Part shown: positions 2,273 to 59,491 of the stretch, piece after piece
Numbering within the stretch: the first letter of the stretch is position 1
How the letters are laid out: each line of letters begins with the position of its first letter
Assembly: GCA_964634935.1 (NCBI GenBank)
Contig: CAZWJT010000003.1
Span: 52,323 to 116,322, forward strand
Length of the DNA stretch: 64,000 nucleotides
Origin: an uncultured Planctomycetia bacterium
Lineage (GTDB): Bacteria > Omnitrophota > Gorgyraeia > Duberdicusellales > Duberdicusellaceae
Direction of reading: 5' to 3'
Program-made: the position numbers and the translations under genes
The notes under the pieces: model-generated
What the model was told of the DNA's origin: nothing
Database searches by the model: none
The model's input: the letters and a program-made list of their open reading frames with translations, nothing else

Positions 2273-2275
2273 TCG

Positions 2276-11074: not shown

Positions 11075-11092
11075 CGTTCATTCAGGAGGATT

Positions 11093-13366: not shown

Positions 13367-13401
13367 GTATATAATAAAAAACTGATTTTAGAAAGATTGC
13401 G

Positions 13402-13779: not shown

Positions 13780-13811
13780 CGATTCGATTTTCCCATCCTC
13801 TTCAAACGTAC

Positions 13812-14945: not shown

Positions 14946-14982
14946 AGAAGGCTTTTTGAAAGAGAATTGAGAAGGAGGATGT

Positions 14983-16697: not shown

Positions 16698-16699
16698 TT

Positions 16700-35988: not shown

Positions 35989-36720
35989 ATGCAAATTCCC
36001 AAAAATATTCTTGCGATTATCCCGGCGCGCAAAGGCTCAAGAGGTTTGAAGGATAAAAATCTGTCTTTACTGGATAAGCATCCTTTGGTTGTCCATACCT
36101 TTGCTGCAGCAAGATCCTCAAAGTTGCTTACCAGGATGATTATGTCAACCGACGATTGTCGCATCGCTCAATTGGCATTACGACATGGGATAGAAGTTCC
36201 GTTTCTTCGCCCCAAATATCTGGCGTCTGACCGGGCAAAAAGCACAGATGTGGCGTTGCACGCGCTTATGCATGTGCAAAAGCATGAAGATTATTCTCCG
36301 GATCTGATTGTTTTGCTTCAGCCAACAGCACCGCTACGCACAGGAGCGCACATTGATGACGCAATACGGAAATTATGCGCACGCCGGGGCGATTCACTAG
36401 TCAGTCTTTGCAGATTATCCGAGCCGCACCCCTATAAGCTGAAACGCTTGAAAAACGGATTTGTTGTTCCATTCTTGACAGGAACCGACAGCACCGTCCC
36501 TCGCCAGCAGTTGCCAGAGGTGTACCGGCTGAATGGCGCAATTTATATTGTTACCCGCGAGGTTTTGCTCAAAGAGAAAAGTTTTTTTGGCACAAGAGTA
36601 ATCCCGTATTTTATGGAGGAAGATTTTTCCGTGAACATTGATTCCGGTTTTGATTTGCTTCTTGCTGAGGCAATATTAAAAAAAAGAAAGCAACGCCATG
36701 GAAAAAGCGTTTCGGTGTGA
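35989..36720 (+). CDS. nonulosonate cytidylyltransferase, second NeuA-like copy
   Basis: ILAIIPARKGSRGLKDKNL motif. Confidence 0.8.
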   Translation: MQIPKNILAIIPARKGSRGLKDKNLSLLDKHPLVVHTFAAARSSKLLTRMIMSTDDCRIAQLALRHGIEVPFLRPKYLASDRAKSTDVALHALMHVQKHEDYSPDLIVLLQPTAPLRTGAHIDDAIRKLCARRGDSLVSLCRLSEPHPYKLKRLKNGFVVPFLTGTDSTVPRQQLPEVYRLNGAIYIVTREVLLKEKSFFGTRVIPYFMEEDFSVNIDSGFDLLLAEAILKKRKQRHGKSVSV

Positions 36721-42148: not shown

Positions 42149-43492
42149 ATGAATATCATTTTTTTTATCAGAAGGTTTAACGACATCGATCATATTGTTC
42201 CCATTGTCTATCGGATTGCGAAGGATCGTTCCGCAATTCCGTATGTATTTTCGCTCAATCCCGCACTCGATATCGAGCATGATTTTCGGCTACGGTTTTT
42301 ACAAGATCAATATCAGGTCAAGGTTGATTTTGTCTACAATGCGTATCGGGATAGTTTTTGCTATGCGCTTGGGTCATTTTTAGTATCGAGCCGGTTTGTC
42401 CGGATGCGCATGGCGGATTGGTCAATGTGTCTGAAAAAAATATTTATAAAGCAATGTTTAGATTCTTATTTTAAAAATTTATTTTTCATATTTCTCTTCC
42501 CTTGCTGGTTGTTATACAACAAGACGCTGTATCCTTTTTTCTGCAGGCAGGGGCTTACAAGAATCTTTTCTGGAAACTGGGGCATAAAAATTCTCAAGAA
42601 GTACCAGCCCAAAGTTCTTGTTTTTGATCGGGTTAAGAAAGAACAGTATGTGACACAGTCTCTTGTCGATGCCGCAAAAAAATTAAAAATTCCTCTGATT
42701 GCCGTTCCGCATGGCTTAAATCTTATTGTCAACCTCCTGCAGCGGGATAGCGATGTCCAGAGAAACGAACCGACTGACTATGGCGAGAAATCAGGATTTT
42801 TTGATTTTCTTATTGTTCAATTTGCTGCTTACAAGAATTTGCTTGTTCAGGCAGGGATTGATCCGCAAAGAATAAAAGTATTGGGTAGTACGCGTTTTTG
42901 CCGCGAGTGGAGGAAAGTATATCATAGCATCGCCCCGGCATATGAAAATGTTCTTCCTTCTTCTCCGGGAAAACTGAAGGTCGTATTTATGGAGTACCCG
43001 TACATGTATCGTATCCATAAAGACGTGGTTGCTGAGACCATGCTTTCTGTATCAAAGCTGCCATTTATCCATCTCGTCATAAAACCACACACCCGCTCAA
43101 ATAAACTCTATGCGCAGGAATTTGAGTCAGGCGGTAAGATAACGATTGCTTACGATATTCCTTCCGTTACGCTGTGCACATGGGCTGATGTGGTGGTTGG
43201 TACTACCTCAAGTATTTTGTTAGAGCCCTTGTTAAATAATAAAGTTTTGTTGTATCCAAAGTTTTTTCATGAGAATATAATGTTGTTTGAAAAGATGAGA
43301 GCTTGTTGGGTTGTTCAGACGGCTCAGGAACTGCTCCAGGCACTCAAGGAGCTCTCTCGGGATTCGCGCCAACGCCCCTACTTACAAACAGACGTTGATT
43401 CGTTCATTACCGAGGTTGTGTACGGCGGGGTACAAAAGCGGGATGTTTTGGGTGAGTATGTGGATTTTATCCGGGCTGTCGCAGAACCGTAG
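42149..43492 (+). CDS. hypothetical protein, possible GT-B-like transferase
   Basis: About 448 aa; C-terminal region (VVVGTTSSILLEPLLNNKVLLY) resembles GT-B C-domains; start uncertain (42092 or 42149). Confidence 0.3.
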   Translation: MNIIFFIRRFNDIDHIVPIVYRIAKDRSAIPYVFSLNPALDIEHDFRLRFLQDQYQVKVDFVYNAYRDSFCYALGSFLVSSRFVRMRMADWSMCLKKIFIKQCLDSYFKNLFFIFLFPCWLLYNKTLYPFFCRQGLTRIFSGNWGIKILKKYQPKVLVFDRVKKEQYVTQSLVDAAKKLKIPLIAVPHGLNLIVNLLQRDSDVQRNEPTDYGEKSGFFDFLIVQFAAYKNLLVQAGIDPQRIKVLGSTRFCREWRKVYHSIAPAYENVLPSSPGKLKVVFMEYPYMYRIHKDVVAETMLSVSKLPFIHLVIKPHTRSNKLYAQEFESGGKITIAYDIPSVTLCTWADVVVGTTSSILLEPLLNNKVLLYPKFFHENIMLFEKMRACWVVQTAQELLQALKELSRDSRQRPYLQTDVDSFITEVVYGGVQKRDVLGEYVDFIRAVAEP

Positions 43493-43503: not shown

Positions 43504-44292
43504 ATGATGATGAAAGTAGTAATTCTTTGCGGAGGATTGGGGACTCGCCTTCGAGAAGAAACAGAATTCCGTCCTAAGCCGATGATAGAGATAGGCGGGA
43601 AACCGATTCTTTGGCATATTATGCGCATCTATAGCCATTTTGGCTTTAAGGAGTTTATCCTCTGCTTGGGGTATAAAGGCGAGATGATCAAAGAGTACTT
43701 TTATAACTATGAGATTTTGAGCAACGATTTTACGATTGAACTTGGGAAAAGAGAAAGCATCGAGATGCATGCTGCGTCACGCGAGGTGGGATGGAAGATT
43801 ACCTTTGCCGATACAGGAGACGCAGCATTGAAGGGGGCTCGGTTAAAGCGCATTGAAAAATATATCACCGGTGATACGTTTATGGTTACCTATGGAGATG
43901 GTCTTGCGGATGTCGATATCCCTGGGCTTCTTAAATTTCACAAACGGCATAAGAAGATTGCTACAGTGACCGGCGTAAATGCGGCTGCCCGTTTTGGAGA
44001 ACTTAAAATTCAGAACGGCCGTGTTGCGAAATTCTTTGAGAAACGCACTGCGCATAAAGAATTTATCAATGGTGGTTTTTTTGTATTCGATAAAAGAATA
44101 TTCCGGTATCTTGAAGATAAAGATTCTTGCGATCTCGAGTACGGCATTCTTGAACAACTTGCCGCTCGGCAGGAACTAGTCGCTTATTTACACCGTGGTT
44201 TCTGGGCATGTATGGATACCTTGCGAGACGTGGAATATCTGAATCAGTTATGGCATAAGAATCGAGCTGACTGGAAAGTATGGGATGGGTAA
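43504..44292 (+). CDS. rfbF: glucose-1-phosphate cytidylyltransferase
   Basis: KVVILCGGLGTRLREETEFRPKPMIEIGGKPILWHIM classic RfbF/DdhA N-terminus. Confidence 0.9.
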   Translation: MMMKVVILCGGLGTRLREETEFRPKPMIEIGGKPILWHIMRIYSHFGFKEFILCLGYKGEMIKEYFYNYEILSNDFTIELGKRESIEMHAASREVGWKITFADTGDAALKGARLKRIEKYITGDTFMVTYGDGLADVDIPGLLKFHKRHKKIATVTGVNAAARFGELKIQNGRVAKFFEKRTAHKEFINGGFFVFDKRIFRYLEDKDSCDLEYGILEQLAARQELVAYLHRGFWACMDTLRDVEYLNQLWHKNRADWKVWDG

Positions 44293-45368
44293 TGGAGCAT
44301 TTAGCGGCTTTTTATCGGGGCAGGCGCGTTCTCATTACTGGGCATACTGGTTTTAAGGGGGCTTGGCTTTCATTCTTGCTAAAGCATTTGAAAGCCGAAG
44401 TCATCGGGTATGCGCTTCCTCCCCCAACAAATCCAAATTTATTCTCCATTCTTCATTTGGAAGGTAAGATGCATTCAGTTCTCGGAGACGTCTGCGACTG
44501 TAAAAATCTTTTCAAGATGATCAGGCGATATAAGCCGGAATTAATCTTTCATATGGCGGCGCAGTCATTAGTCAAACGGTCATATCTTGCGCCACGCGCA
44601 ACTTTCGCGACAAATATTATGGGCACTGTCCATGTCTGTGAAGCGGTGCGTATGTATCAGTTTATTCGCGCCCTTGTGGTAGTGACAAGCGATAAATGTT
44701 ATGAGCAATCTTCCGGTAAAAAAATATTTTCTGAAGAGGATTCTATGGGTGGATTTGATCCCTATAGTTCAAGCAAAGGTTGTGCCGAACTTGTTGTACG
44801 AGCTTATGAGCGTTCTTATTTTTCAAAGGTTTCCACAGTTTCTGGAGCAATAGCTTCAGCGCGTGCCGGAAATGTTATAGGCGGCGGAGACTGGGCCGTC
44901 GATCGGATTATTCCAGATTGCGTCCGAGCGTTTCTCAAGAACAAACCCATTGTCGTTCGGTGTCCTGATTCTGTGCGTCCCTGGCAGCATGTGTTCGATC
45001 CTCTTTATGGATATCTTCTTCTTGGGAAAAACCTTCTTGAATCTGGAAAGAAGTTTAGCGGGGGATGGAATTTTGGGCCCTGTGAAGGCCGGAAAACCGT
45101 CAAGTGGCTTGTTACATATATGATACGCTTGTGGGGTAGAACCAGCGGCTGGATACCAGATAAAACAACACATCCCCATGAAGCGGAATATCTGCGGCTT
45201 AATTGTCAAAAAGCAAACAAAAAATTACGTTGGTTTGCATCGTGGAACATTACCAGAGCCGTGCGAGAGACGATGGCATGGTACAAGGCTTATTATGCCA
45301 AGGTTGATATGTGGGATTTCTCGTTGGGACAGTTGAGCCAATATATCGCAGGAAGGGTGAAGCGATGA
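44292..45368 (+). CDS. rfbG: CDP-glucose 4,6-dehydratase
   Basis: FYRGRRVLITGHTGFKGAWL, YSSSK; TAATG overlap with rfbF. Confidence 0.85.
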   Translation: MEHLAAFYRGRRVLITGHTGFKGAWLSFLLKHLKAEVIGYALPPPTNPNLFSILHLEGKMHSVLGDVCDCKNLFKMIRRYKPELIFHMAAQSLVKRSYLAPRATFATNIMGTVHVCEAVRMYQFIRALVVVTSDKCYEQSSGKKIFSEEDSMGGFDPYSSSKGCAELVVRAYERSYFSKVSTVSGAIASARAGNVIGGGDWAVDRIIPDCVRAFLKNKPIVVRCPDSVRPWQHVFDPLYGYLLLGKNLLESGKKFSGGWNFGPCEGRKTVKWLVTYMIRLWGRTSGWIPDKTTHPHEAEYLRLNCQKANKKLRWFASWNITRAVRETMAWYKAYYAKVDMWDFSLGQLSQYIAGRVKR

Positions 45369-46588
45369 ATTGCAGGTTTTGTGATACTCCATTGAACTTT
45401 CTTTTTATTTCTTTAGGTTTTTCCCCACTCGCCAATGCGTATCTCTCTGAAGAAGATCTCGGGCGCAAAGAATCATTCTATCCGCTGGATGTTTATATCT
45501 GCCACAACTGTTTTCTTGTCCAATTAGCTGAGTTTGAGGATCCGCAAGCGATCTTCCGCACGTACGCCTATTTTTCTTCGTATGCTGATGCCTGGCTTGA
45601 GCATGCAAAGATGTATGTTGATTCGATAGTCCCTTTTTTAGGCTTGCGTCCGTCTTCCTGTGTCGTTGAGATCGCCAGTAACGATGGCTATCTTCTGCAG
45701 TATTTTGTAGAGAAAAACATACCGGTATTAGGAATAGAACCAGCAGAAAATATTGCCAAGGTTGCACAAGAAAAAGGCATACCTACGGAGATTGCTTTTT
45801 TTGGAAGTTCCTATGCTCAAAGGCTTGTTGAACAGGGGAAATCTGCTGATCTTATCGTGGGGAATAATGTTCTTGCTCATGTTCCCAAATTGAATGATTT
45901 TGTTTGCGGCCTTAAGATTCTTCTGAAACCCCGCGGGGTTATTACTATGGAATTTCCTCATCTTCTGAAGCTCATTGAGGGGCTGCAGTTTGATACTATC
46001 TATCACGAGCATTTTTCTTATTTTTCTTTTTCGACAGTGCGTCGTATTTTCGATACCGCAGGACTTAAGATTTTCCGCGTGGAAGAAATTCCCACCCACG
46101 GGGGATCGTTACGTATTTACGCCGCGCATAAGGAGAATCAAGAGCGGTCCATAGAACGATCCGTTGAACTTTTAAACGAAAAAGAACTTTTAAATGGATA
46201 TCATGAAGTTAAGAAATACCTTCTTTTTGCTGAACAGGTAAGGGCATTAAAATACGCTTCGCTGCAATTTTTCATCGAGGCAAAACGGCAAGGGAAGAAA
46301 ATCGTAGGTTATGGGGCTGCTGCCAAGGGCAATACTTTTCTTAATTACTGCGGCATCGGACGAGATTTTCTCGATTATACCGTCGATAAAAATATGTATA
46401 AACAGGGGAAATTTCTTCCGGGAACTCATGTTCCGATTGTAGCTCCGGAAATGTTAAAAAAGACAAAACCAGATTATATTTTTATACTAGCCTGGAATTT
46501 GAAAGAAGAAATTATCAAGCAGCTTGGTTATGTGCGTTCATGGGGCGGTAAATTTGTAACGGCAGTTCCTTCAATGACGGTTCTCTAG
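45365..46588 (+). CDS. TylC3-type NDP-hexose C-methyltransferase family protein
   Basis: N-terminal CRFC...CHNC zinc-ribbon, VVEIASNDGYL SAM motif, C-terminal C-methyltransferase-type domain. Confidence 0.65.
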   Translation: MNCRFCDTPLNFLFISLGFSPLANAYLSEEDLGRKESFYPLDVYICHNCFLVQLAEFEDPQAIFRTYAYFSSYADAWLEHAKMYVDSIVPFLGLRPSSCVVEIASNDGYLLQYFVEKNIPVLGIEPAENIAKVAQEKGIPTEIAFFGSSYAQRLVEQGKSADLIVGNNVLAHVPKLNDFVCGLKILLKPRGVITMEFPHLLKLIEGLQFDTIYHEHFSYFSFSTVRRIFDTAGLKIFRVEEIPTHGGSLRIYAAHKENQERSIERSVELLNEKELLNGYHEVKKYLLFAEQVRALKYASLQFFIEAKRQGKKIVGYGAAAKGNTFLNYCGIGRDFLDYTVDKNMYKQGKFLPGTHVPIVAPEMLKKTKPDYIFILAWNLKEEIIKQLGYVRSWGGKFVTAVPSMTVL

Positions 46589-46589
46589 T

Positions 46590-47126
46590 ATGAAGTTTCT
46601 TCCGTCCACAATCCCCGGCGTGTTCTCGATTGAAAAAGAAGCTTTTCAAGACGAGAGGGGTTTTTTCTTAAGAACGTTCTGTCAGGAAGAATTTCGGAAG
46701 CATCACATTGATTTTACGGTTCGGCAAACGAACCTGTCTTATAATCGGATCAAGGGAACCTTGAGGGGTTTACATTACCAAAGAGAGCCGTTTCAAGAAG
46801 ACAAGCTTGTTGAATGTATCCGTGGTTCTTTTTATGATGTAATTCTTGATTTGCGGAGAGATTCTCCCGCGTACGGTACCTGGGTTGCTTTTTCGCTTAC
46901 CTGCTGTAAGCCAACAATGATTTATGTTCCGCGCGGATGCGCACACGGCTTTCAAACACTCGAAAACGAAACTTTTCTTTTATACCATATGTCCGAGTTT
47001 TATCATTCGCAGCACGCAACCGGTATCCGATGGAATGATCCTTTTTTCCGTATTTCTTGGCCGCTTCCGAATCCTTTGGTATCTGATCGCGACTCGCAAT
47101 ACCCAGATTTTGAAAGATCAACATGA
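46590..47126 (+). CDS. NDP-4-keto-6-deoxyhexose 3,5-epimerase (cupin, RfbC-like)
   Basis: 178 aa cupin with RGLHYQ and HGFQTLE motifs of RmlC family. Confidence 0.8.
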   Translation: MKFLPSTIPGVFSIEKEAFQDERGFFLRTFCQEEFRKHHIDFTVRQTNLSYNRIKGTLRGLHYQREPFQEDKLVECIRGSFYDVILDLRRDSPAYGTWVAFSLTCCKPTMIYVPRGCAHGFQTLENETFLLYHMSEFYHSQHATGIRWNDPFFRISWPLPNPLVSDRDSQYPDFERST

Positions 47127-48043
47127 ATAAAACGGTGTTGGTGAGCGGAGCGAATGGTTTTATCGGCCGGCACACGCTCCCTCTTTTATTGGAGCGGGGA
47201 TATAATGTGCATGCGCTTCTGTATCCTTCCTGTGACAATTCTCTTAAGGTTTTCCCTTGTCAGTACCATGTATGTGATCTTTTCGATTTTGCGGCACAGA
47301 AAAAAATATTTGAGCAAATCCGTCCTGTGTATCTTATACATTTTGCCTGGATTACAACTCCAAAAATTTATTGGACATCGTTCGATAATTTTCGTTGGGT
47401 TCAGGCGAGTCTCGAGCTTTTCCGGAATTTTATAGAATGTGGGGGTAAACGCATTCTCTGCAGCGGCACTTGCGCTGAATATGACTGGGTAAATGAGCGC
47501 TTATCAGAAACCACTTCTTCTCTGGTTCCTCGTACGTTTTATGGAATATGTAAACGCAGCCTTTCCGAGTTACTTTTTGCCGTTAGCCGGCAAACCAAGG
47601 TTAGCAGCGCCTGGGGGAGGATTTTTTTTGTCTATGGTCCGCATGAACATAAAGAACGGCTCGTCCCTTCTGCGATCCACGCGCTCTTAGGCGGGAACAA
47701 TTTTCGCTGTTTTTCTGGAGAACAAAAGCGGGACTTCCTTTTCGTAGAAGACGTCGCCGCTGCTTTTGTTGCTTTATTGGAAAGTCAGGTTGAAGGAGCG
47801 GTGAATATCGCATCGGGTGCCGCAATTCCTATTCGGGAGTTACTGGAGACACTCAGGCGCACGATTGCTACGACGGGAGTTATCGAGTTTTTCCAGGAAT
47901 CAAAGAATAATCAAGAACCACCGGCGTTGGTTGCCGACATAAAACGGTTAGAACAAGAAGTGCATTGGCGTCCGCGATGGACAATTGAAGAGGGATTAAG
48001 AAAAACTGTTCAATGGCACAGAGAGGTTTTTGGTAATCTATGA
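47123..48043 (+). CDS. NAD(P)-dependent NDP-sugar reductase/epimerase
   Basis: VLVSGANGFIGRH, YGICK. Confidence 0.7.
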   Translation: MNKTVLVSGANGFIGRHTLPLLLERGYNVHALLYPSCDNSLKVFPCQYHVCDLFDFAAQKKIFEQIRPVYLIHFAWITTPKIYWTSFDNFRWVQASLELFRNFIECGGKRILCSGTCAEYDWVNERLSETTSSLVPRTFYGICKRSLSELLFAVSRQTKVSSAWGRIFFVYGPHEHKERLVPSAIHALLGGNNFRCFSGEQKRDFLFVEDVAAAFVALLESQVEGAVNIASGAAIPIRELLETLRRTIATTGVIEFFQESKNNQEPPALVADIKRLEQEVHWRPRWTIEEGLRKTVQWHREVFGNL

Positions 48044-49185
48044 AATGTCCTGTTTGTTCTGCGCATACCACCACACGATTCTTGGTAAGATCAAACATTC
48101 CCGTGCACCAGAATCTTCTCTATAGGAGCCTGAAAGCTGCGCAGCAGGCCGTTCGGGGAGATCTGGTTTTAAGAAGATGCCCGCATTGCGATTTTGTTTT
48201 TAACAGTTCGTTTAATCAGTCGTTGCTTTCCTACGGGAGCGATTATGAGAATACACAAATGCACTCAAAATATTTTGCCCGGCATATCCAATCGCTTCTT
48301 AGATATTTTGTGGGAAAAAGGCAAGCTACCCATAAGCGTATCGTAGAGGTAGGGTGCGGGGAAGGATATTTCTTAAGACTACTCTGCACACAGGGTAAAA
48401 ACGTTGGCGTGGGTTTTGATCCAGCCTATCAAGGACCTTTGTCTGTGGCTGATGGCAGGATTATTTTTCATCGTTCCTTCTTTAATCCGCGCTTGCTTCA
48501 GGAAGTCCCAGATGTCATTGTCTGCCGGCATCTCATAGAGCACATTATCTCTCCTCGAAAGTTTTTAGAGGAGCTGAAGACTATTTCCAAGCAATTCTCA
48601 GGTTGGATGTTTTTTGAAACCCCTTCTCTTGAATGGATTCTACAGCACCATGCCTTCTGGGATTTTTTCTATGAACACAGCTCGTATTTTTGTCAAAGGT
48701 CCTTGGAGGTTTTGTTCGCCGAAGCTGGTTTTCGAGTTATGAGTTGTCAAAGCGTTTTTGGGGGCCAGTATTTTTGGATAGAAATAGCGGGGGCACAGGG
48801 CATATCAAACGAAAGTAAACATAAACGCATTCCGAATGCGTGGTTTGCAAGTTACCAAGACAAAGAGAATGAGCTTGTGCGGTATTGGAGAGAGCGTATT
48901 GAAAAAATAAAGAAAAATGGTAGAGTAGCTCTCTGGGGAGCTGCGGCAAAGGGTACGACTTTTGTCAATCTTATCGACCCTGATAGGGTGCTGATTGATT
49001 GTATTGTTGATCTCAACCCTCGCAAGCAAGGGATGTTTATCCCGGGAACCGGCCATCGTATTATTTCATACGCAGAACTACTGAAGCAGGGTGGAATACA
49101 ATCCGTTTTTGTTATGAACAGGAACTATTATCGAGAAATAAAAGATCTCACAAGGCGAAGTAAACTCAAGCTTTTCTGCTTATGA
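48040..49185 (+). CDS. second TylC3-type C-methyltransferase family protein
   Basis: CPVC...CPHC zinc-ribbon, IVEVGCGEGYF SAM motif, C-terminal domain similar to 45365-46588. Confidence 0.6.
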   Translation: MKCPVCSAHTTTRFLVRSNIPVHQNLLYRSLKAAQQAVRGDLVLRRCPHCDFVFNSSFNQSLLSYGSDYENTQMHSKYFARHIQSLLRYFVGKRQATHKRIVEVGCGEGYFLRLLCTQGKNVGVGFDPAYQGPLSVADGRIIFHRSFFNPRLLQEVPDVIVCRHLIEHIISPRKFLEELKTISKQFSGWMFFETPSLEWILQHHAFWDFFYEHSSYFCQRSLEVLFAEAGFRVMSCQSVFGGQYFWIEIAGAQGISNESKHKRIPNAWFASYQDKENELVRYWRERIEKIKKNGRVALWGAAAKGTTFVNLIDPDRVLIDCIVDLNPRKQGMFIPGTGHRIISYAELLKQGGIQSVFVMNRNYYREIKDLTRRSKLKLFCL

Positions 49186-49195
49186 GAGGTATAAG

Positions 49196-49963
49196 ATGAA
49201 ACTGGTAATTGATACAAAAAAGGAAATTTTAGTAAAAGAAGAAAATGGGAAAAGGGCAGTTTTCAACCTTTACTCGCCCAAGGCATTTGAGATACTGAGT
49301 CAGCAGTGGCTTAAGGTTGGATGGGACCAGAAATATTCTTATTCCTATACTTGGTTGAACCGCCCGGTTATCCAATTGCCTGATGATCTACTCCGGATGC
49401 AGGAAGTTTTATGTACGGTGCGGCCAACCGTGGTTATTGAGACCGGCATTGCGCATGGAGGATCCCTTATTTTTTACGCGAGTATCTTAACGCTTCTGGG
49501 TGAGGGCAGAGTCATAGGCATCGATATTGCAATTAAACCACCTAACCGCAAGGCCATAGAAGCTCATAAGCTTTCTTCGAGAATTTCATTAGTAGAAGGA
49601 AGTTCTACCGAAATTTCGGTGCGGAAAGCAGTCGAACAGATGATAAAGAAGAACGACAGAGTGTTGGTGGTTTTAGACTCATGCCATACAAAAAGGCATG
49701 TTGAAGAAGAGCTTAACGCATACTATAAGCTTGTTACAAAAGGTTCCTATCTTGTCGCTACCGACGGCATTATGAAGGATTTATCAGATACTCCCCGGGG
49801 GAAAAAAGAATGGATTTTTGATAATCCTGTTTGCGCAGTAAGAAAATTTTTAAAGCAACATCCTGAATTTCGGCTGGAACGCCCACCCAGGATTTTTAAT
49901 GAAAGTAAGTTGCCCAAAGATATCACTTATTGGCCGAGCGCGTACCTGAAGCGTATTTCATAA
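49196..49963 (+). CDS. CmcI/cephalosporin-hydroxylase-family methyltransferase (sugar O-methyltransferase-like)
   Basis: WLNRPVIQLPDDLLRMQE...VVIETGIAHGGSL typical of CmcI family. Confidence 0.65.
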   Translation: MKLVIDTKKEILVKEENGKRAVFNLYSPKAFEILSQQWLKVGWDQKYSYSYTWLNRPVIQLPDDLLRMQEVLCTVRPTVVIETGIAHGGSLIFYASILTLLGEGRVIGIDIAIKPPNRKAIEAHKLSSRISLVEGSSTEISVRKAVEQMIKKNDRVLVVLDSCHTKRHVEEELNAYYKLVTKGSYLVATDGIMKDLSDTPRGKKEWIFDNPVCAVRKFLKQHPEFRLERPPRIFNESKLPKDITYWPSAYLKRIS

Positions 49964-52014: not shown

Positions 52015-52776
52015 ATGCGACACAATACACTGAAGCAATCGATGTTTCGGCGTCGCTATACGGTCGGCTCTTGGATCACCCAGGCTGAACCCTCGATAGC
52101 GGAAATTATGGTAGACGCTGGATTTGAATGGTTGGTCGTTGATATGGAGCATTCAGCGATTACTTTTGCACAAGCCCAGGATCTCGTACGGGTTATTTCT
52201 CGAGCCGGGAGCATACCTCTTGTGCGGGTAGGTGAGAATAGCCAAAATTTTATCAAGCGAGCAATGGATATAGGAGCATATGGAGTAGTGGTGCCGATGG
52301 TTAATACTGCTTCTGATGCCCAACGTGCAGTCGAATCGGTAAAATATCCTCCGTGGGGGAAGCGAGGGGTTGGGCTTGCTCGGGCTCAAGGTTATGGGTT
52401 AAGTTTTGAAACGTACAAACGATGGGTAAACAAAGAAACCGTTGTTATTGCGCAAATCGAACATATTGAGGCTGTTCGGAATCTGGAAGAAATTTTATCA
52501 ATTCGCGGAATTGACGGAACTATCATCGGACCATATGATCTTTCTGCTTCTCTGGGGGTTCCCGGTGATTTTCAGCACCCAGAATTTACAAAAGCCGTGT
52601 CCCATTATGAGAGTACTTGTAGAACGATGAAAAAACCAGCAGGATTCCATGTAGTCAGACCGGATGTGCTCCAAGTGCGGCTGCGCCGCAAACATGGATA
52701 CTGTTTTATAGCCGTTGGATTAGATACGCTTTATTTAGGAGAAAAATGCCGAGAAATTCTACGAAAGATCCGTTAA
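52015..52776 (+). CDS. HpcH/HpaI-family class II pyruvate (2-keto-3-deoxy acid) aldolase
   Basis: WLVVDMEHS, PLVRV, VVPMVNTASDA motifs; AAGGAG RBS 8 nt before ATG 52015. Confidence 0.75.
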   Translation: MRHNTLKQSMFRRRYTVGSWITQAEPSIAEIMVDAGFEWLVVDMEHSAITFAQAQDLVRVISRAGSIPLVRVGENSQNFIKRAMDIGAYGVVVPMVNTASDAQRAVESVKYPPWGKRGVGLARAQGYGLSFETYKRWVNKETVVIAQIEHIEAVRNLEEILSIRGIDGTIIGPYDLSASLGVPGDFQHPEFTKAVSHYESTCRTMKKPAGFHVVRPDVLQVRLRRKHGYCFIAVGLDTLYLGEKCREILRKIR

Positions 52777-53759
52777 ATAATTATGATGCCATGCGTCCGC
52801 AAGACCTTTATGCTGAAGTGTTGCGTCAGCGGGAAACTGATGGGCAAGCTTTTTTTGCTCTCTACCACGATAAATTTGTGGAGGTTGCGTGTCCCGTATG
52901 CGGGAATAATGGCATATTCTCCTTTGTAAAGTATGGTTTTTTACATCGGACCTGCGGTGAATGTCATACTTTGTTTTGTTCCCCTCGACCCCCGGAAGAC
53001 TTACTCTCTTTATATTATACCCAGTATAAAGCTCCCCAACTCTGGACGGAGCTTGTTATAAAAACAGATGCTCTCCGCAAATCCGTTCAATATCTACCCC
53101 GAGTTGAAGCAATTCTGGCGATTATAAAACAGCAAGGTGTTTCTCAGGGCGGACGGGCATTAGACATAGGAGCGGGGAGCGGGGCTTTTTCCCTTTGTCT
53201 TAAAAATACAAAATTTTTCCACCAGGTTATTGCGCTTGATATTTCCGAACCATGCGTACACGCCTGCCAGTCGCAGGGGTTAGAAGCACAATTGGGAACC
53301 ATTTTTGACATAGCCGACGATTCTTTTGATTTTGTTTGCACAAATGATTTTATTGAGCATTTATTCGATCCGGGTATTTTTTTAGAACAATGCTTCCGGA
53401 TTTTGCGCAAAGGCGGTTATTTATCAATAGCAACCCCGAACGGCGAGGGTTTCGATTTCAAGATTTTGAGAGAAAAAACCAACAATATTACTCCTCCAGA
53501 GCATCTTACCTATTTGAACCCCGTTTCCTTAAGTTTTCTGCTCAAGCGCACAGGTTTTTCTCCGGTTAGTATTCTGACTCCCGGAAAGCTGGATGTTGAG
53601 ATTATACAGAAAGAAAAAGCATCAGGGTATCCTCTCGCGGATAAAAATCAATACATAGATTATCTTTTAGGTCTGGACGAGCAAACTGTATGTAATTTCC
53701 AGAAATTTCTTGTAGAAAACGGGCTTTCAAGTCACATGGTGGCTGTTGCTCATAAATAA
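52746..53759 (+). CDS. class I SAM-dependent methyltransferase with N-terminal zinc-ribbon
   Basis: CPVCGNNG...CGEC and ALDIGAGSGAF motif I. Confidence 0.6.
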   Translation: MPRNSTKDPLNNYDAMRPQDLYAEVLRQRETDGQAFFALYHDKFVEVACPVCGNNGIFSFVKYGFLHRTCGECHTLFCSPRPPEDLLSLYYTQYKAPQLWTELVIKTDALRKSVQYLPRVEAILAIIKQQGVSQGGRALDIGAGSGAFSLCLKNTKFFHQVIALDISEPCVHACQSQGLEAQLGTIFDIADDSFDFVCTNDFIEHLFDPGIFLEQCFRILRKGGYLSIATPNGEGFDFKILREKTNNITPPEHLTYLNPVSLSFLLKRTGFSPVSILTPGKLDVEIIQKEKASGYPLADKNQYIDYLLGLDEQTVCNFQKFLVENGLSSHMVAVAHK

Positions 53760-53768
53760 GGAGAAATC

Positions 53769-54554
53769 ATGAATATTGTCGGTATTATTCCTGCCCGGAT
53801 GGGATCCAGTCGGTTCCCCGGTAAACCTTTAATGCCCATATGCGGGATACCGATGATTGGTCATGTATATTTACGAAGTAAAATGTGTAAGGCGCTCTCT
53901 GCGGTCTATGTTGCTACCTGTGATACCGAAATAGAACAGTATCTTCATTCAATCAATGGAAACGTGATTATGACTTCTTCAGCTCATGAGCGAGCCTCAG
54001 ATAGAACAGCAGAAGCTCTTTTAAAGATTGAGGAAACTCGGAAAGAAAAAATAGACATAGTCGTTATGATTCAAGGCGATGAACCTATGCTTGTGCCTGA
54101 AATGATTGAGCAGGCAGTGAGACCTCTGTATGAAGATCAGTCATGCCATGTCGTTAATCTTATGGCTTGTTTAACCTCAGAAGATGAACAAAAAGACCAG
54201 AATGAAATAAAAGTTGTGGTGGATCTCAAGAATTTCGCTCTCTATTTTTCTCGTAGCCCAATTCCCTATCGGAAAAAAGACGCTCCGCCCACCCCTGTTT
54301 ATAAGCAGGTATGTATTATTCCGTTCCGGAGAAATTTTCTTCTCGAATACAATAATCTTGCAACCACCCCTCTAGAGAAGGCAGAATCGATTGACATGTT
54401 GCGTGTTCTTGAGCATGGTCATAAAGTGAAGATGGTTTTGACTTCCTTTGTGACCTACAGCGTTGATACGCCTGATGATCTTCGGGAGGTTGAAGAAGTG
54501 ATGAAGGGGGATTCTTTGATTTCTTCATATCAAAAGGGCGCGGCAAAAAGATGA
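53769..54554 (+). CDS. KdsB-type 3-deoxy-ulosonate cytidylyltransferase
   Basis: IVGIIPARMGSSRFPGKPL...GIPMIGHV is the KdsB (CMP-Kdo synthetase) N-terminal signature, distinct from the two NeuA-type genes. Confidence 0.8.
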   Translation: MNIVGIIPARMGSSRFPGKPLMPICGIPMIGHVYLRSKMCKALSAVYVATCDTEIEQYLHSINGNVIMTSSAHERASDRTAEALLKIEETRKEKIDIVVMIQGDEPMLVPEMIEQAVRPLYEDQSCHVVNLMACLTSEDEQKDQNEIKVVVDLKNFALYFSRSPIPYRKKDAPPTPVYKQVCIIPFRRNFLLEYNNLATTPLEKAESIDMLRVLEHGHKVKMVLTSFVTYSVDTPDDLREVEEVMKGDSLISSYQKGAAKR

Positions 54555-55471
54555 AGATAGCCATCACAACGACATCATTCGGCGTGCACGATGATGCGCC
54601 GCTTGCGAAGCTGCGCGCCAAGAATTGTGAAGTTGTTTTGAATCCTTACAAGCGCACCATCACCACCCAGGAACTCATCCAGCTGGCCTCTGATGTCGAA
54701 GGTTTGATTGCTGGTACTGAGCCGATTACAGAAGAAGCGCTTGAGCAAATGCGGAATTTGCGGGTCATTTCCCGTTGCGGTGTTGGTGTTGATTCTATCG
54801 ATGTCATCGCGGCTTCAACAAAGGGAATAGCGGTATTGAATACCCCCCAAGCTCCGACCGTTGCCGTAGCTGAATTGACCGTTGGATTTATGATCATGCT
54901 TCTTCGGCGCGTCGCAACGATGAACCAAAACATACGCCAGGGTATTTGGAATAAGATGATGGGGAATCTTCTTTGCCGCAAACGGGTGGGGATAGTGGGT
55001 TTTGGAAACATAGGAAAGAAAGTAGCTACTCTGCTAGGGTCGTTTGGAGTTGAAATAAGATACTACGATCTTTCCAAGAGCCAGGTTAATCCAGGTTGCC
55101 AATTTATGGATTTTGATCCTTTGCTCCAATGGGCGGATATTATTACCATACATGCATCGAGCAAGAATAAAAAAATGATCCTTGGAGCGCGTGAATTTGC
55201 TTTGATGAGGCAAGGAGCATGGCTCGTCAACGTTTCTCGGGGCGGGTTAGTAGATGAAGATGCTCTCTATGCTGCGGTGGCAAACAAGCATCTTGCTGGT
55301 GCAGCGTGCGATGTATTTATGCAAGAACCGTATACGGGGCCTTTGGCTAGGCTGGATAATATTATTCTTACTCCCCATATCGGTTCTTATGCTGTTGAAG
55401 CGAGAATAGCTATGGAAATGCAGGCAGTTGATAATCTCCTTGAAGTATTGGAACACAATAAAAGTAAGTAA
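54551..55471 (+). CDS. D-isomer-specific 2-hydroxyacid dehydrogenase
   Basis: VGIVGFGNIGKKVA NAD motif, catalytic domain layout of PGDH/GDH-like family. Confidence 0.85.
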   Translation: MKIAITTTSFGVHDDAPLAKLRAKNCEVVLNPYKRTITTQELIQLASDVEGLIAGTEPITEEALEQMRNLRVISRCGVGVDSIDVIAASTKGIAVLNTPQAPTVAVAELTVGFMIMLLRRVATMNQNIRQGIWNKMMGNLLCRKRVGIVGFGNIGKKVATLLGSFGVEIRYYDLSKSQVNPGCQFMDFDPLLQWADIITIHASSKNKKMILGAREFALMRQGAWLVNVSRGGLVDEDALYAAVANKHLAGAACDVFMQEPYTGPLARLDNIILTPHIGSYAVEARIAMEMQAVDNLLEVLEHNKSK

Positions 55472-55484
55472 TTTGGTAATTCCC

Positions 55485-56174
55485 ATGACTGTCTATCTGT
55501 CGCATGTGTTAACTCGGCACATTCCTGTGTATGGGGTTCCTAGACAGCGATTGAGCATCAAGAAAACTGAACGGGGTAGTCGCAATAATTTCTGCCAGAC
55601 ACATTGGTTTGGCATGGAAAATCATTGGGGAACTCATGTTGATTGTCCGGCCCATTTTTTCCGTCGGGGACAATGTGTCGCAGATTATCCGTCTGATTTC
55701 TGGTTTTTTCAACATCCTCAAGTACTGCATCTGGATCTTGCTCTTGGCCAGATTCTTCGGCAGCAGGATATTCCGGGCAGGGTAGATATGAGTACGGATT
55801 TGCTACTTCTTTGTTCTGGCTTAAGTCGATTGCGTGGAAGTACAGCGTATAGCCGCAATAATCCTGGATTACATCCCGAGATTGGTTTTTGGTTACGAAA
55901 ACACTATCCCAACTTGCGAGCAATAGGAATTGATTGGATATCGATTTCTTCTTTTCAGCAGCGGGATTTAGGTAAAAAGGCACATCAGGCATTCTTAAAT
56001 CCTAAGGCTCCGGGTCATCCGATTTTGATCGTGGAAGACATGAATCTTTCCGGTGGCTTAAAACAGCTTAAGCAAGCGTTGATCATTCCATTAATCATAG
56101 AGGGCATCGATAGCGCTCCCTGTACGGCAATCGGCGTTTTAAAGCGGAGAAGCGCTTCAATGAAGGAGGGATAG
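55485..56174 (+). CDS. cyclase-family (kynurenine-formamidase-like) protein
   Basis: NHWGTHVDCPAHF HxGTHxD motif; start set to ATG 55485 after upstream stop. Confidence 0.5.
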   Translation: MTVYLSHVLTRHIPVYGVPRQRLSIKKTERGSRNNFCQTHWFGMENHWGTHVDCPAHFFRRGQCVADYPSDFWFFQHPQVLHLDLALGQILRQQDIPGRVDMSTDLLLLCSGLSRLRGSTAYSRNNPGLHPEIGFWLRKHYPNLRAIGIDWISISSFQQRDLGKKAHQAFLNPKAPGHPILIVEDMNLSGGLKQLKQALIIPLIIEGIDSAPCTAIGVLKRRSASMKEG

Positions 56175-56178
56175 TTTC

Positions 56179-57096
56179 ATGAAAGCAATAGTTTTTGGTG
56201 GTTCTGGATTCCTGGGCAGCCATGTTGCTGATGCGCTTACTGAGCGAGGATTTTCTGTTACTATTTACGATCGCAATCCATCAGCGTATCGCCGGGATAC
56301 CCAGAAGATGATTATCGGGGATATCCTTGACGTGAAATCCGTCAGCACTGCAATACAGGGGAACGCCTATGTCTATAATTTTGCTGGAATCGCCGATATA
56401 AAAGAGGCGTGTACTGATCCGCGAAAGACGGTAGAAGTGAATATTCTCGGGAGTACAAATATTTTGGAAGCGTGCCGCTTACACCAGGTAAAAAGGTACA
56501 TTTTTGCAAGCTCAATCTACGTGTACAGCGATATAGCGCCATTTTACCGGAGCAGTAAGCAGTCTTGTGAGTTTATTACTGAGGATTATTACAATCTTTT
56601 CGGGCTAGACTATACAATTCTGCGCTATGGATCGCTTTACGGGAAAAGAGCAAATCAGTTTAATTTTATCTACCGGACGATACAGGAAGCAATCGTAACG
56701 GGAAAGATTACACGGAAAGGCGACGGAGAAGAAATTCGCGATTATATCAATGTGCTTGATGCTGCCAGATGCAGCGTGGATATTTTGTCTGAAGAATACA
56801 AGAACCAGTATGTTTTGTTGACCGGGGCCCAATCAGTCAAAGTAAAAGATCTTTTAATTATGATTCAGGAGATTTTTCAGGGCAAGATTAAAATCGAATA
56901 TCATTCTGAGTCTGACAAGGATCATTATGAAATTACCCCTTATGCTTTTCGCCCTCGCCCGGCAAAAAAGATTGCGCTTAAGGAATATTATGATTTAGGG
57001 CAAGGGATTCTTGATGTCATCTACGAAGTATATTCGAACTCTGCTGACGCCACAAAAGAACTATCTTTTCTCAAGAAAATCTTCGATACGCCGTGA
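56179..57096 (+). CDS. NAD-dependent sugar epimerase/dehydratase
   Basis: AIVFGGSGFLGSHV, YRSSK. Confidence 0.75.
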   Translation: MKAIVFGGSGFLGSHVADALTERGFSVTIYDRNPSAYRRDTQKMIIGDILDVKSVSTAIQGNAYVYNFAGIADIKEACTDPRKTVEVNILGSTNILEACRLHQVKRYIFASSIYVYSDIAPFYRSSKQSCEFITEDYYNLFGLDYTILRYGSLYGKRANQFNFIYRTIQEAIVTGKITRKGDGEEIRDYINVLDAARCSVDILSEEYKNQYVLLTGAQSVKVKDLLIMIQEIFQGKIKIEYHSESDKDHYEITPYAFRPRPAKKIALKEYYDLGQGILDVIYEVYSNSADATKELSFLKKIFDTP

Positions 57097-57740
57097 TTAT
57101 GCGAAGGCCAAGGGTTTTGCTCCTCGATTTCGACGGGGTTATCCTAGAAACAGTCGGCCTTAAAGGGCTGGTGTTTCGGGAGCTTTTTGCCAAATATCCA
57201 GAACACGTAGAAAAAATTGTCGCTTATCATCTTGCCAACGGAGGCATATCGCGGTTTCAAAAATTTCGCTCGATTTACAAACACATTCTTGAGAAACCTC
57301 TTTCAACAAGCGAGTTTAATTCTCTTTGCAATCGGTTCTCAAAGCTCGCATACCGAAAAGTGCTCAACGCCGATTTCGTTCCCGGAGCGAAGGAATTTCT
57401 GGAAAGTACCTATACGCATACTCCTTTGTTTATTGTTTCCGGAACTCCAGAGGATGAAATACGGAGGATTGTGAAACAACGGAAGCTTGCACGGTACTTT
57501 CACGGCGTTTTTGGAGCTCCTCGGAGTAAATCTTTTTTAATCAGGAAGATTCTTCGTCAATGGAGGTTTTCAGCAAAAGAAGCAATCTTTGTCGGCGATG
57601 CGATGAGCGACTGGGACGCTGCACAAAGAACAGGGATCCGTTTTATCGCCAGAGTAACAGAGCAAGATATTTTTAAGAAAGTAAAGGTATACAAAAAAAT
57701 GAACGATCTTTTCGCGCTGCGAAAAATCTTTCAAGGATAA
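57093..57740 (+). CDS. HAD-superfamily phosphatase
   Basis: LLLDFDGVI (DxDG motif I), GDAMSD motif IV. Confidence 0.7.
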   Translation: MIMRRPRVLLLDFDGVILETVGLKGLVFRELFAKYPEHVEKIVAYHLANGGISRFQKFRSIYKHILEKPLSTSEFNSLCNRFSKLAYRKVLNADFVPGAKEFLESTYTHTPLFIVSGTPEDEIRRIVKQRKLARYFHGVFGAPRSKSFLIRKILRQWRFSAKEAIFVGDAMSDWDAAQRTGIRFIARVTEQDIFKKVKVYKKMNDLFALRKIFQG

Positions 57741-57751: not shown

Positions 57752-59491
57752 ATGAGATACTTTTGGCATTTTCTCCGCAATTATAAAAAAGAGACGACGG
57801 TTCTTTTTTTCTTCGTTATGCTCAATACCGCTGCAGAGAGCATCGGTTTAGGGATGCTGCTACCTTTTTTCCAGACAGTATTTTCTGCTTCTCTACCCCA
57901 AGAAAAAGCTTCTGTTTTTTTAAAACCATTCCTAGATTTTTTCCCCGCAGAGCACCAGATTTATATCATTGGGGGAGGTATTTTGGCATTGTTAATTTTT
58001 AAAAGTCTCTTTACTCTTGTCCAAACTGCCTATGCCGCACACTTTGAATGGAGAGTGCTTCGTGAATGGTCTACGGGCATTATGGAGCGATATATGCGTT
58101 CTCCATACTCATTCGTCATTTCCCGTACGCAGGGTTTGTTGCTTAACAATGTTATCGCTGAACCACCCAACGCGATTAAATTTATAGAAGTTGCCCTGTT
58201 ACTCACGTCTCGGTTATTGCTTATGCTCGGGTTGTATCTAATTCTTTTTCTTGTTCATTGGCAGATGACAGTCGCTATAAGCATTATCGCAATTATTATC
58301 GTGATGCTTGTTTATCGGATAACGCGCACAATAGCAACGACATATGGCACGATCAAGCTCCAATGGAATCAGCAACTCCACGCAAACGCTGCCGAAAATA
58401 TCAGTGCGGTACGTCAGATAAAAACATTCTCTCTCGAAGAGCGCGTATGCAAGCGATTCGGCGGTATTTTAGCTAACATCTCCAAACTCGTGATACGCTT
58501 CAAGATTATCCAAGTGTTTCCTGACATGCTCGCAGAAATACCGATAGCTTTTTTTTCAATAGGAGCAATCATATATCTTTTTACCAGCCAAGGCCCGAAA
58601 GCATTGTCGTATGTTCCGACTATTGCGCTTTTTGCGGTTATTGGGTTACGATTATTCAGCTGCGCCTCAATCATCATAAAGAACCGGCTTTTATTCTTCT
58701 CATTACTTGCTTCATTGAAAGTTATCTTCGAGAATACAACAAGAAAGGCTGAGTTTGAAATTCTTGATAAAGGTATTTCTGTGGGTAATCTTGAAACAGA
58801 TATTGTTGTTGAAAACTTAAGCTTTTCTTACGGTGCCAGGAAAGCATTATTCAACAATCTGAATATGCGGATACCTTTTCAAAAAGCAACTGCGATCATC
58901 GGCGGCTCTGGATCCGGGAAGTCCACGTTCGCAGACTTACTTATTGGCTTATACCAGCCGGATGCAGGGAAAATTCTTATTAATCATCAAGATCTCCAGA
59001 CTCTCCAACTGAGTTCCTGGCGGAAACAAGTTGGTTTTGTAAGCCAAGATACACTGTTATTTCATGCGAGCATCAGAGAAAATATTTTAGCGGGTAAACC
59101 TGAGGCATCTGATGAAGAAGTAATCGCGGCGGCGAAGAAGGCGAGAGCCCACGAGTTTATTCAACATTTTCCGAGAGGATATGAAACTATCGTTGGGGAT
59201 AGGGGTTTGGCTCTTTCAGGGGGCCAGCGGCAACGTATTGCTATTGCGCGGGCGATGATCCGTAACCCTCACTTTTTCATCTTTGATGAAGCGACAAGTT
59301 CTTTAGACTATGAAACCGAGAAGCTCATTCAGCAGACAATAATGTCCTTTGCGGAAGAGAAAACAGTTTTGATTATTACCCATCGCCTGCTCAGTATTGC
59401 AAATGTGGAACTGATCTATAGATTAGAGAACGGGATCATTGTACAATCGGGGACAGCTAAAGAAATTTTTAAACAGGGTTTTTCAGATTAA
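57752..59491 (+). CDS. ABC exporter, fused permease/ATPase (MsbA/PglK-like)
   Basis: Six N-terminal TM helices; GGSGSGKST Walker A, LSGGQRQR signature, IFDEATSSLD Walker B. Confidence 0.85.
   Translation: MRYFWHFLRNYKKETTVLFFFVMLNTAAESIGLGMLLPFFQTVFSASLPQEKASVFLKPFLDFFPAEHQIYIIGGGILALLIFKSLFTLVQTAYAAHFEWRVLREWSTGIMERYMRSPYSFVISRTQGLLLNNVIAEPPNAIKFIEVALLLTSRLLLMLGLYLILFLVHWQMTVAISIIAIIIVMLVYRITRTIATTYGTIKLQWNQQLHANAAENISAVRQIKTFSLEERVCKRFGGILANISKLVIRFKIIQVFPDMLAEIPIAFFSIGAIIYLFTSQGPKALSYVPTIALFAVIGLRLFSCASIIIKNRLLFFSLLASLKVIFENTTRKAEFEILDKGISVGNLETDIVVENLSFSYGARKALFNNLNMRIPFQKATAIIGGSGSGKSTFADLLIGLYQPDAGKILINHQDLQTLQLSSWRKQVGFVSQDTLLFHASIRENILAGKPEASDEEVIAAAKKARAHEFIQHFPRGYETIVGDRGLALSGGQRQRIAIARAMIRNPHFFIFDEATSSLDYETEKLIQQTIMSFAEEKTVLIITHRLLSIANVELIYRLENGIIVQSGTAKEIFKQGFSD

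Follow-up and report, generated by a model that had tools for sequence, protein, structure and literature searches.

A gene cassette pairing an HpcH-type aldolase with its own KdsB-like cytidylyltransferase: a candidate phosphoenolpyruvate-independent route to a CMP-activated sugar acid

To our knowledge, all textbook routes to keto-acid sugars activated with cytidine monophosphate (CMP), i.e. those to Kdo (3-deoxy-D-manno-octulosonate), the sialic, legionaminic and pseudaminic acids and 2-keto-3-deoxynononic acid (Kdn), use a synthase that depends on phosphoenolpyruvate (PEP). Does a natural route exist in which a pyruvate aldolase takes the place of this synthase? The question is raised by a 64,000-nucleotide stretch of DNA, here called the window, from an uncultured Planctomycetia bacterium of the GTDB lineage Omnitrophota (NCBI GenBank assembly GCA_964634935.1, contig CAZWJT010000003.1, positions 52,323 to 116,322 of the forward strand). 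At positions 52015-57740 of the window an aldolase of the HpcH/HpaI type is encoded together with a KdsB-like cytidylyltransferase (CT) and five further enzymes. From sequence comparison we favor, on balance, the view that these genes specify the synthesis, without PEP, of a CMP-activated 2-keto sugar acid that is not Kdo and that would serve the surface glycan of the locus.

Gene calls on the source contig placed seven abutting genes on the plus strand of this segment, which overlap or are at most 13 nt apart. The first one (52015..52776; PF03328, 3.5e-37) encodes the class II 2-oxoacid aldolase, the proposed C-C bond former, for which a GTG at 52006 is an alternative start. It is followed by an S-adenosylmethionine (SAM)-dependent methyltransferase with an N-terminal Cys-rich segment (52746..53759; Methyltransf_23 3.5e-16, Methyltransf_11 5e-16), probably a sugar-acid O-methylase, and by the CT (53769..54554; PF02348, 1.7e-48), which belongs to an orthologous group linked to the aldolase and whose protein begins MNIVGIIPARMGSSRFPGKPL. 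Then come a D-isomer-specific 2-hydroxyacid dehydrogenase, which resembles phosphoglycerate dehydrogenase (PGDH) and is no true PGDH (54551..55471; PF02826, 9e-52), a cyclase-family metal hydrolase, possibly a lactonase or amidohydrolase (55485..56174; PF04199, 8e-16), an extended SDR resembling short nucleotide-sugar 4-epimerases of the GalE type (56179..57096; PF01370, 7.5e-37) and a HAD-IA phosphatase of the beta-phosphoglucomutase (beta-PGM) or phosphoglycolate-phosphatase type (57099..57740; HAD_2, 1.4e-15). Pfam matches and gene calls located all six gene types listed in a preliminary description of the locus. Its inventory had overlooked the methyltransferase between aldolase and CT. 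A long antisense ORF (open reading frame) at 56269-57042 on the minus strand lies within the SDR gene and recurs in related loci; we rejected it as a by-product of the conserved coding sequence.

Relatives of the aldolase were sought with an alignment profile in one genome per species; used as a single query, the aldolase gave no relative. The profile scan detected at least 595 carriers. The best 80 of these, with aldolase identities of 46-62%, were taken as the locus set, and synteny was assessed by tblastn with the window proteins and by an independent clustering of all ORFs in the 80 loci. Counts out of 43 refer to the well-covered loci, i.e. those with at least 8 kb on both sides of the aldolase. 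The 80 loci span about 17 bacterial and four archaeal phyla, and the carriers include Methanoperedens, Thermoplasmatales, Methanoregula, Hadarchaeum, Woesearchaeota, Dehalococcoidia and Patescibacteria, which are hosts without lipopolysaccharide (LPS).

In most long loci aldolase, KdsB-like CT, dehydrogenase, extended SDR and HAD phosphatase were adjacent on one strand, and self-contained operons of these five genes occur, e.g. in L044, L061 and L078. A CMP-transferase was present within 1.5 kb of the aldolase in 36 of the 43 well-covered loci; widening the distance to 5 kb raised the number to 41. The dehydrogenase (39/43), the SDR (33/43) and the HAD phosphatase (27/43) were found within 10 kb. 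The cyclase was present in 17 of the 43 loci, and a homologue of the methyltransferase within 1.5 kb of the aldolase in 9, other methyltransferase families substituting elsewhere. Precomputed Pfam annotation showed the same arrangement in a metagenome-assembled genome of the Dissulfurispiraceae and in Candidatus Magnetobacterium bavaricum. Few other window genes recur in the 80 loci, namely a second extended SDR and, with low identity, genes of the NeuB/NeuA sets. Chance cannot account for a grouping that recurs in dozens of unrelated genomes. We concluded that 52015-57740 is a single instance of a biosynthetic cassette that is horizontally mobile. The aldolase, a dedicated CT, the dehydrogenase, the SDR and the HAD phosphatase make up the core; the methyltransferase and the cyclase-family hydrolase are extras of the window copy.

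Is the aldolase a catabolic enzyme that happens to be encoded here? A PDB search gave YfaU, a 2-keto-3-deoxy sugar aldolase, as the nearest solved structure (3.7e-48). The protein has the PF03328 TIM-barrel that defines the HpcH/HpaI superfamily, and residues H49, R74, E152 and D178 were invariant in 24 homologues; by their motifs we take them to correspond to His45, Arg70, Glu149 and Asp175 of HpaI. To judge from these residues the aldolase is catalytically competent. Yet it scored less than half of the cutoffs of the HpaI, RhmA and GarL equivalog models (TIGR02311, 183 vs 369; NF007521, 174 vs 441; NF007849, 169 vs 393; TIGR03239, 167 vs 407), and the partner genes of the catabolic enzymes are absent nearby, which places it outside the HpaI, RhmA (YfaU) and GarL orthologous groups. 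It thus shares the fold and the metal- and pyruvate-binding residues of the catabolic HpcH-family aldolases (HpaI/HpcH, YfaU/RhmA, GarL), but differs in its biosynthetic context and its linkage to a CMP-transferase, and the dehydratase, kinase and semialdehyde dehydrogenase of the catabolic operons are missing. The concern of the preliminary description that the aldolase might belong to an aromatic-catabolic operon beside canonical kds genes did not hold as far as testable: the aldolase is part of no catabolic operon for aromatics or sugar acids and is tied to a CMP-transferase across many phyla. Close relatives of the aldolase number thousands in metagenomes at about 60% identity, where they are named deoxyglucarate, rhamnonate or HpcH aldolase. 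No fusion of CT and aldolase genes was seen among the best 120 matches of either protein.

With E. coli KdsA as the query, which was validated against PDB 1d9e, tblastn detected no KdsA, neither in the window nor among the 80 loci. Precomputed Pfam annotation of the window contains neither KdsA (DAHP_synth_1) nor a KdsD-type gene; the preliminary description had said the same of the window. In 31 of the 43 loci no NeuB gene was closer than 10 kb to the aldolase. The window does have two NeuB genes. They belong to separate sets 15-25 kb upstream of the cassette, none being inside 52015-57740, and each adjoins a CT of the NeuA type (26347-27138 and 35989-36720). Loci with both NeuB and the aldolase had two CTs, one beside each condensing enzyme.

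The KdsB-like CT, on the other hand, belongs to a family that public sources label CMP-Kdo synthetase. Taken at face value this name would make the CT a capsule-type, i.e. KpsU-like, or a housekeeping enzyme of ordinary CMP-Kdo supply, with unrelated sugar-acid genes nearby by chance. The profile data are in part compatible with this. The CT passed the NCBIfam KdsB subfamily models NF009905 (303 bits vs a cutoff of 255) and NF003952 (276 vs 193); it is of the KdsB type and distinct from the two genuine NeuA-type CTs of the window, as the preliminary description had stated. Of the equivalog models TIGR00466 was barely passed (155.7 vs 155.2) and NF003948 failed (189 vs 281). KpsU was the best PDB match (1gq9, 1e-44). 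Moreover, a gene of the KpsC/KpsS beta-Kdo-transferase family (PF05159 Capsule_synth) is located in the window at 33202-34758, between the two NeuB/NeuA sets. As a transferase of the cassette, however, this gene was ruled out, with no homologue in the 80 aldolase loci.

The substrate pocket was examined by comparing 45 aldolase-linked CTs with the three solved KdsB/KpsU sequences. The window protein, which has the CTP_transf_3 fold of PF02348, keeps the catalytic R10 and K19 and both Mg-binding Asp residues, D98 and D225, along with R15 and the stretch Q96-G-D98-E-P (KpsU numbering), and so do 45 of 45 aldolase-linked CTs. In contrast, positions invariant in the three Kdo enzymes were replaced, H172 by Q and Q202 by M in 45 of 45 and E201 by D in 44 of 45. 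Further near-invariant changes were G174C, Y176I, Y178F, S75R and D51C. At KpsU positions 51, 75, 96, 98, 172, 174, 176, 178, 201, 202 and 225 the aldolase-linked CTs read CRQDQ(C/G)IFDMD, the three solved Kdo enzymes DSQDHGYYEQD. The HxGIYxYR and ELEQLR motifs of the Kdo enzymes were thus swapped in a family-specific fashion. The aldolase-linked CT, as far as its residues tell, keeps the catalytic and the CTP/Mg residues, CTP being cytidine triphosphate, and has a pocket of its own. In loci with two CTs the signature was found only in the one linked to the aldolase. A separate group of KdsB-like CTs is encoded directly beside NeuB (L002:3211-3969, L035:17790-18527, L040:48-776, L068:3351-4046) and has neither the motifs of the Kdo enzymes nor the signature. 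Because these proteins fit neither set, the 'KdsB-like' CTs of the loci comprise at least three specificity groups.

The distribution of the CT points in the same direction. Its identity to the window copy was 52-67% in hosts without LPS and 62-64% for the archaeal copies, the latter value indicating lateral transfer under strong constraint. Since the family is present in archaea, Dehalococcoidia and Patescibacteria and its pocket is unlike that of Kdo enzymes, the CT is not simply a housekeeping kdsB; the possibility, considered in the preliminary description, that it is the only kdsB for LPS was contradicted, as far as testable, by the carriers without LPS and by the non-Kdo signature. Ordinary CMP-Kdo supply is also at odds with a gene order kept over about 21 phyla including archaea and other lineages without LPS, with the lack of kdsA in the window and the 80 loci and of kdsD in the window, with the replacement of Kdo-invariant positions in all aldolase-linked CTs, with the absence of any catabolic dehydratase, kinase or transporter, and with a KpsC/S-like gene that does not travel with the cassette. 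We consider it highly improbable.

Taken together, the conserved linkage, the CT signature and the paired CTs give the aldolase the genomic profile of a condensing enzyme that comes with its own activating enzyme, as NeuB does. Substrates and step order we infer as follows. The aldolase would condense a phosphorylated aldose or aldehyde, drawn from central metabolism, with pyruvate or perhaps hydroxypyruvate and so replace the PEP-dependent KdsA or NeuB synthase. The HAD phosphatase would strip off the terminal phosphate, and the CT would turn the free keto acid into the CMP-glycoside. Cleavage of CTP would be the irreversible step which pulls the reversible aldol reaction forward. The SDR may epimerise or oxidoreduce one ring position and the methyltransferase may O-methylate the sugar. 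Dehydrogenase and cyclase-family protein might supply donor or acceptor or, alternatively, form a dehydrogenase/lactonase branch. The preliminary description had proposed a non-canonical aldolase route to a CMP-activated, Kdo-like sugar. This proposal is supported in part: the type of CT, the absence of a PEP synthase nearby and the non-catabolic setting of the aldolase stand, while the product may be a 3-deoxy acid, with pyruvate as the donor, or a 3-hydroxy acid.

The proposed route has parallels to known systems. With the canonical CMP-Kdo pathway (KdsD, KdsA, KdsC, KdsB/KpsU) it shares a KdsB-family CT with the same catalytic residues, a phosphatase of the HAD superfamily and the expected product, a CMP-linked 2-keto sugar acid for surface-glycan transferases. 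It differs by the lack of KdsA and KdsD, in whose stead we propose a metal-dependent pyruvate aldolase instead of a PEP-dependent synthase, by a phosphatase of the HAD-IA type instead of KdsC, by the CT pocket, by the additional dehydrogenase, SDR, cyclase and methyltransferase and by hosts without LPS. The nonulosonic acid pathways (NeuB/PseI/LegI with NeuA/PseF/LegF) likewise have a condensing enzyme beside its own CMP-transferase in loci for glycans or flagellin glycosylation, sometimes with Maf, but the condensing enzyme of the cassette has another fold and would use another donor, pyruvate and not PEP. Because the cassette lacks an aminotransferase, an N-acetyltransferase and a hydrolysing 2-epimerase, its product is probably not an amino sugar acid. 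In one-pot chemoenzymatic syntheses a reversible pyruvate aldolase, sialic acid aldolase, is pulled by the irreversible CTP-dependent CMP-sialate synthetase. The thermodynamic logic would be the same as in the cassette; yet that pairing is one of the laboratory with the class I enzyme NanA, which is naturally catabolic, while the cassette holds a natural gene pair of class II aldolase and CT.

The other enzymes of the cassette were compared with known families and with their substitutes in the locus set. The SDR matched UDP-hexose 4-epimerases best in the PDB (6dnt, 3.7e-23; also 4zrm and 2p5u), while its match to the model of the glucose-6-phosphate dehydrogenase Azf was just 5.5e-7. The cyclase-family protein had weak PDB matches to kynurenine formamidase. 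The HAD phosphatase is not KdsC, which is a HAD-IIIA enzyme of the YrbI type: the KdsC model TIGR01670 gave 17 bits against a cutoff of 107 (E 0.0038), and the best matches were beta-PGM and phosphoglycolate-phosphatase types of HAD-IA (TIGR02009, 8.9e-10). Some genes appear to be interchangeable. The cyclase (17 loci) and a gene of the 6-phosphogluconolactonase type in the same slot (5 loci) never occurred together (0 loci); the latter is bona fide with 158 bits in TIGR01198 at a cutoff of 124. This mutual exclusion suggests a lactone-handling step. Similarly, no locus had both the HAD phosphatase (25 loci) and an AroB-related 'sugar phosphate phospholyase' (TIGR04425; 8 loci). This suggests that the phosphate has to be removed from a phosphorylated intermediate.

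A lactone-handling step invites an oxidative scheme. In it the SDR would oxidise C1 of an aldose or aldose phosphate to the lactone, the cyclase or the 6-phosphogluconolactonase-type protein would open the lactone, and the dehydrogenase would oxidise C2 to give a 2-keto-aldonic, i.e. 3-hydroxy-2-ulosonic, acid for HAD phosphatase and CT. The aldolase would be ancillary, e.g. for epimerisation at C3/C4 by enolisation or retro-aldol cleavage, or for precursor supply. The exclusivity of cyclase and bona fide 6-phosphogluconolactonase-type gene is in line with such a scheme, as is a GFO-family oxidoreductase that replaces the SDR in another variant of the cassette. 2-Hydroxyacid dehydrogenases interconvert aldonates and 2-keto-aldonates. 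The dehydrogenase of the cassette matches one such interconverter, the 2-ketogluconate reductase 9m0t, at 1e-38. Every gene but the aldolase would have a textbook role. However, the member that defines the cassette and is best conserved is the aldolase, immediately beside the CT; the SDR resembles UDP-hexose 4-epimerases and not sugar 1-dehydrogenases, as the poor Azf match illustrates, and about one third of the SDR-containing loci lack a lactonase. We regard oxidative formation of the keto acid as distinctly improbable.

The dehydrogenase is, after the CT, the most faithful partner of the aldolase. Its best PDB match was PGDH 1wwk (2e-53), but it scored 240 bits in the SerA equivalog model TIGR01327 with a cutoff of 454. 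The catalytic Arg, Glu and His were invariant. The substrate-binding motif of PGDH, V-R-S in 1wwk and R-S-R in SerA, is replaced by A-G-T-E in the window copy; 51 of 55 family members have A-G-x-E. With catalytic residues kept and the PGDH motif changed, we predict a competent 2-oxoacid/2-hydroxyacid enzyme that has its own substrate. Supply of hydroxypyruvate to the aldolase by a true 3-phosphoglycerate dehydrogenase is weakened by the absence of the Arg-Ser motif; a supply of hydroxypyruvate by a glycerate dehydrogenase is possible.

This enzyme heads the points that weigh against the aldolase route to a CMP-activated sugar acid. A simple tailoring role hardly suits it: reduction of the 2-oxo group would destroy the anomeric center needed by the CT; it must then act upstream or on another branch. 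The likeness of the SDR to nucleoside diphosphate (NDP)-hexose 4-epimerases hints at a nucleotide-sugar substrate that is outside the model, and the exclusivity of cyclase and 6-phosphogluconolactonase-type gene suggests a lactone intermediate, which would not be expected from a simple aldol route. Finally, our reading of the CT pocket presumes that HxGIYxYR and ELEQLR, with His172, Glu201 and Gln202, line the Kdo site.

The first of these points would be resolved if the cassette made an acyl side chain and not a glycosyl donor. The flagellin glycan of Treponema denticola is a pseudaminic-type acid which carries a 2-methoxy-4,5,6-trihydroxy-hexanoyl group (bioRxiv 10.64898/2026.01.31.703064). 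By analogy, a 3-deoxy-2-O-methyl-hexonic acid, perhaps as the lactone, could acylate an amino group of a nonulosonic acid formed elsewhere in the locus. The aldolase would form 2-keto-3-deoxy-hexonate from pyruvate and glyceraldehyde or glyceraldehyde-3-phosphate, the dehydrogenase would reduce C2, the methyltransferase would act on the 2-OH and the HAD phosphatase would remove the phosphate. Aldolase, dehydrogenase and methyltransferase together would give exactly the carbon skeleton of the T. denticola hexanoyl substituent, its 2-O-methyl group included; the substituent is an N-acyl side chain, unlike a CMP-activated glycosyl donor. The dehydrogenase would thereby obtain a natural role, the methyltransferase would be explained, methyltransferases being frequent beside the aldolase, the lactonase-like genes (cyclase and 6-phosphogluconolactonase type) could handle an aldonolactone, and the two NeuB/NeuA sets of the window would fit. 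On the other hand, the dedicated, conserved CT beside the aldolase in 36 of the 43 loci would have no explanation, no amide-forming enzyme (ATP-grasp, acyl-CoA ligase, GNAT) recurs in the loci, and most of the well-covered loci have no NeuB within 10 kb. Acyl-chain synthesis is the main rival, though in our judgement an unlikely one. If it were true, the cassette would hold the first genes for the unusual acyl chain of spirochaete flagellin glycans.

Returning to the aldolase route, we tentatively extend it beyond the window: the cassette may well represent a third, PEP-independent way to CMP-activated keto-acid sugars, with a class II pyruvate or hydroxypyruvate aldolase as the synthase and a CT of its own, which would place an undescribed and frequently methylated ulosonic acid at the surface of some 600 or more species of bacteria and archaea, among them archaea, bacteria of the candidate phyla radiation and Dehalococcoidia. 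Of this wider claim we are less sure than of the route in the window. A natural pair of aldolase and CT would then follow a different biosynthetic logic. It would explain 'CMP-Kdo synthetase' genes in organisms without LPS and correct a widespread annotation error, as the annotations now given to genes of the cassette are 'CMP-Kdo synthetase' and '2-dehydro-3-deoxyglucarate aldolase'. Many uncultured lineages and a few culturable ones, in which mass spectrometry could detect it, would carry an unidentified surface sugar; among the cultured carriers are Nitrosomonas sp. Nm166, Syntrophomonas wolfei subsp. methylbutyratica JCM 14075, Draconibacterium mangrovi GM2-18 and Mucilaginibacter segetis. 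The enzymes would be useful for chemoenzymatic synthesis of keto-acid sugars. No published description of the cassette was found in the searchable literature, which omits most subscription journals, so that prior publication is possible.

Variants of the cassette were recognized in the locus set. Where a KdsB-type CT is missing, a divergent NeuA/PseF-like CT is encoded directly upstream of the aldolase (PseF model, 99 bits vs a cutoff of 206). Maf-type glycosyltransferases were found only alongside a NeuA-type CT, in five of five well-covered Maf loci. A second variant in Dehalococcoidia, Methanoregula, Omnitrophota and Bacteroidota (L015, L016, L033, L046, L055, L059, L065 and L074) combines aldolase, CT and dehydrogenase with a GmhA-like SIS isomerase, a GFO-family oxidoreductase, an adh_short enzyme and the AroB-related phospholyase (463 bits in TIGR04425, cutoff 400). 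It has YhcH/DUF386 in the Bacteroidota loci and often comes with Maf genes and without NeuB. FkbH-like proteins, B12-binding radical SAM enzymes and SPASM radical SAM enzymes recur near the cassette (L008, L032, L034, L053, L085 and L086). Enzymes of the FkbH type charge a carrier protein with a glyceryl unit. These neighbours hint at further acyl or C-methyl tailoring.

A possible partner is encoded outside the seven genes at 42149..43492 on the plus strand. This protein of about 430 residues, which we call u428, has no match in Pfam or NCBIfam. ORF clustering placed its family in ten other loci, usually beside CT or aldolase (L021:8737-10023, L044:262-1557, L066-L070, L076, L078 and L080). 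The L044 copy is directly upstream of the aldolase and 36% identical to the window protein; under a stricter tblastn criterion, a query coverage of 60%, just four loci matched the window protein. Among 5.8 billion proteins 472 relatives were found. An AlphaFold2 model (mean predicted local distance difference test score 89.9) has a GT-B fold, with UDP-GlcNAc 2-epimerases and other GT-B proteins as best Foldseek matches (template-modelling score about 0.55). From fold and position, u428 could be the cognate transferase or an NDP-sugar hydrolase.

Directly downstream of the cassette an ABC exporter of the MsbA/PglK type is encoded on the plus strand (57752..59491; ABC_tran 5.8e-34, ABC_membrane 1.3e-13). 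The HepA, MsbA and PglK models were all below cutoff and homologues occur in just three related loci; it is not a conserved part of the cassette. The cassette sits inside a 40-kb co-directional run of glycan genes, which comprises an initiating transferase, the two NeuB/NeuA sets, the KpsC/S-family gene, a TagF-like gene, a C-methylated deoxysugar route, several methyltransferases, GT2 genes and the exporter. A scan for promoters and terminators gave no more sites than in shuffled sequence. The deoxysugar route at 43504-49963, which leads to a branched or methylated sugar, consists of a nucleotidyltransferase (NTP transferase), a 4,6-dehydratase, two TylC3-type C-methyltransferases (Methyltransf_13/14), an RmlC-like epimerase, a reductase and a CmcI-type methyltransferase. 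Genes for the glycine cleavage proteins T, H, P1 and P2, a lipoate-protein ligase and lipoyl synthase are located at 12863-19816, immediately upstream of the glycan genes, and are flanked by DUF192 and PilZ-domain genes. The beginning of the window (1-12529) holds a small polyketide-like cluster with a ketosynthase, an acyl carrier protein, a PF04199 cyclase, an SRPBCC polyketide cyclase, a major facilitator superfamily (MFS) transporter and a ketoreductase, together with a B12-radical SAM protein, an amidohydrolase_2, a class IV aminotransferase, an IF-2B/MtnA-like isomerase, a class II (MtnB-like) aldolase and an aldehyde dehydrogenase.

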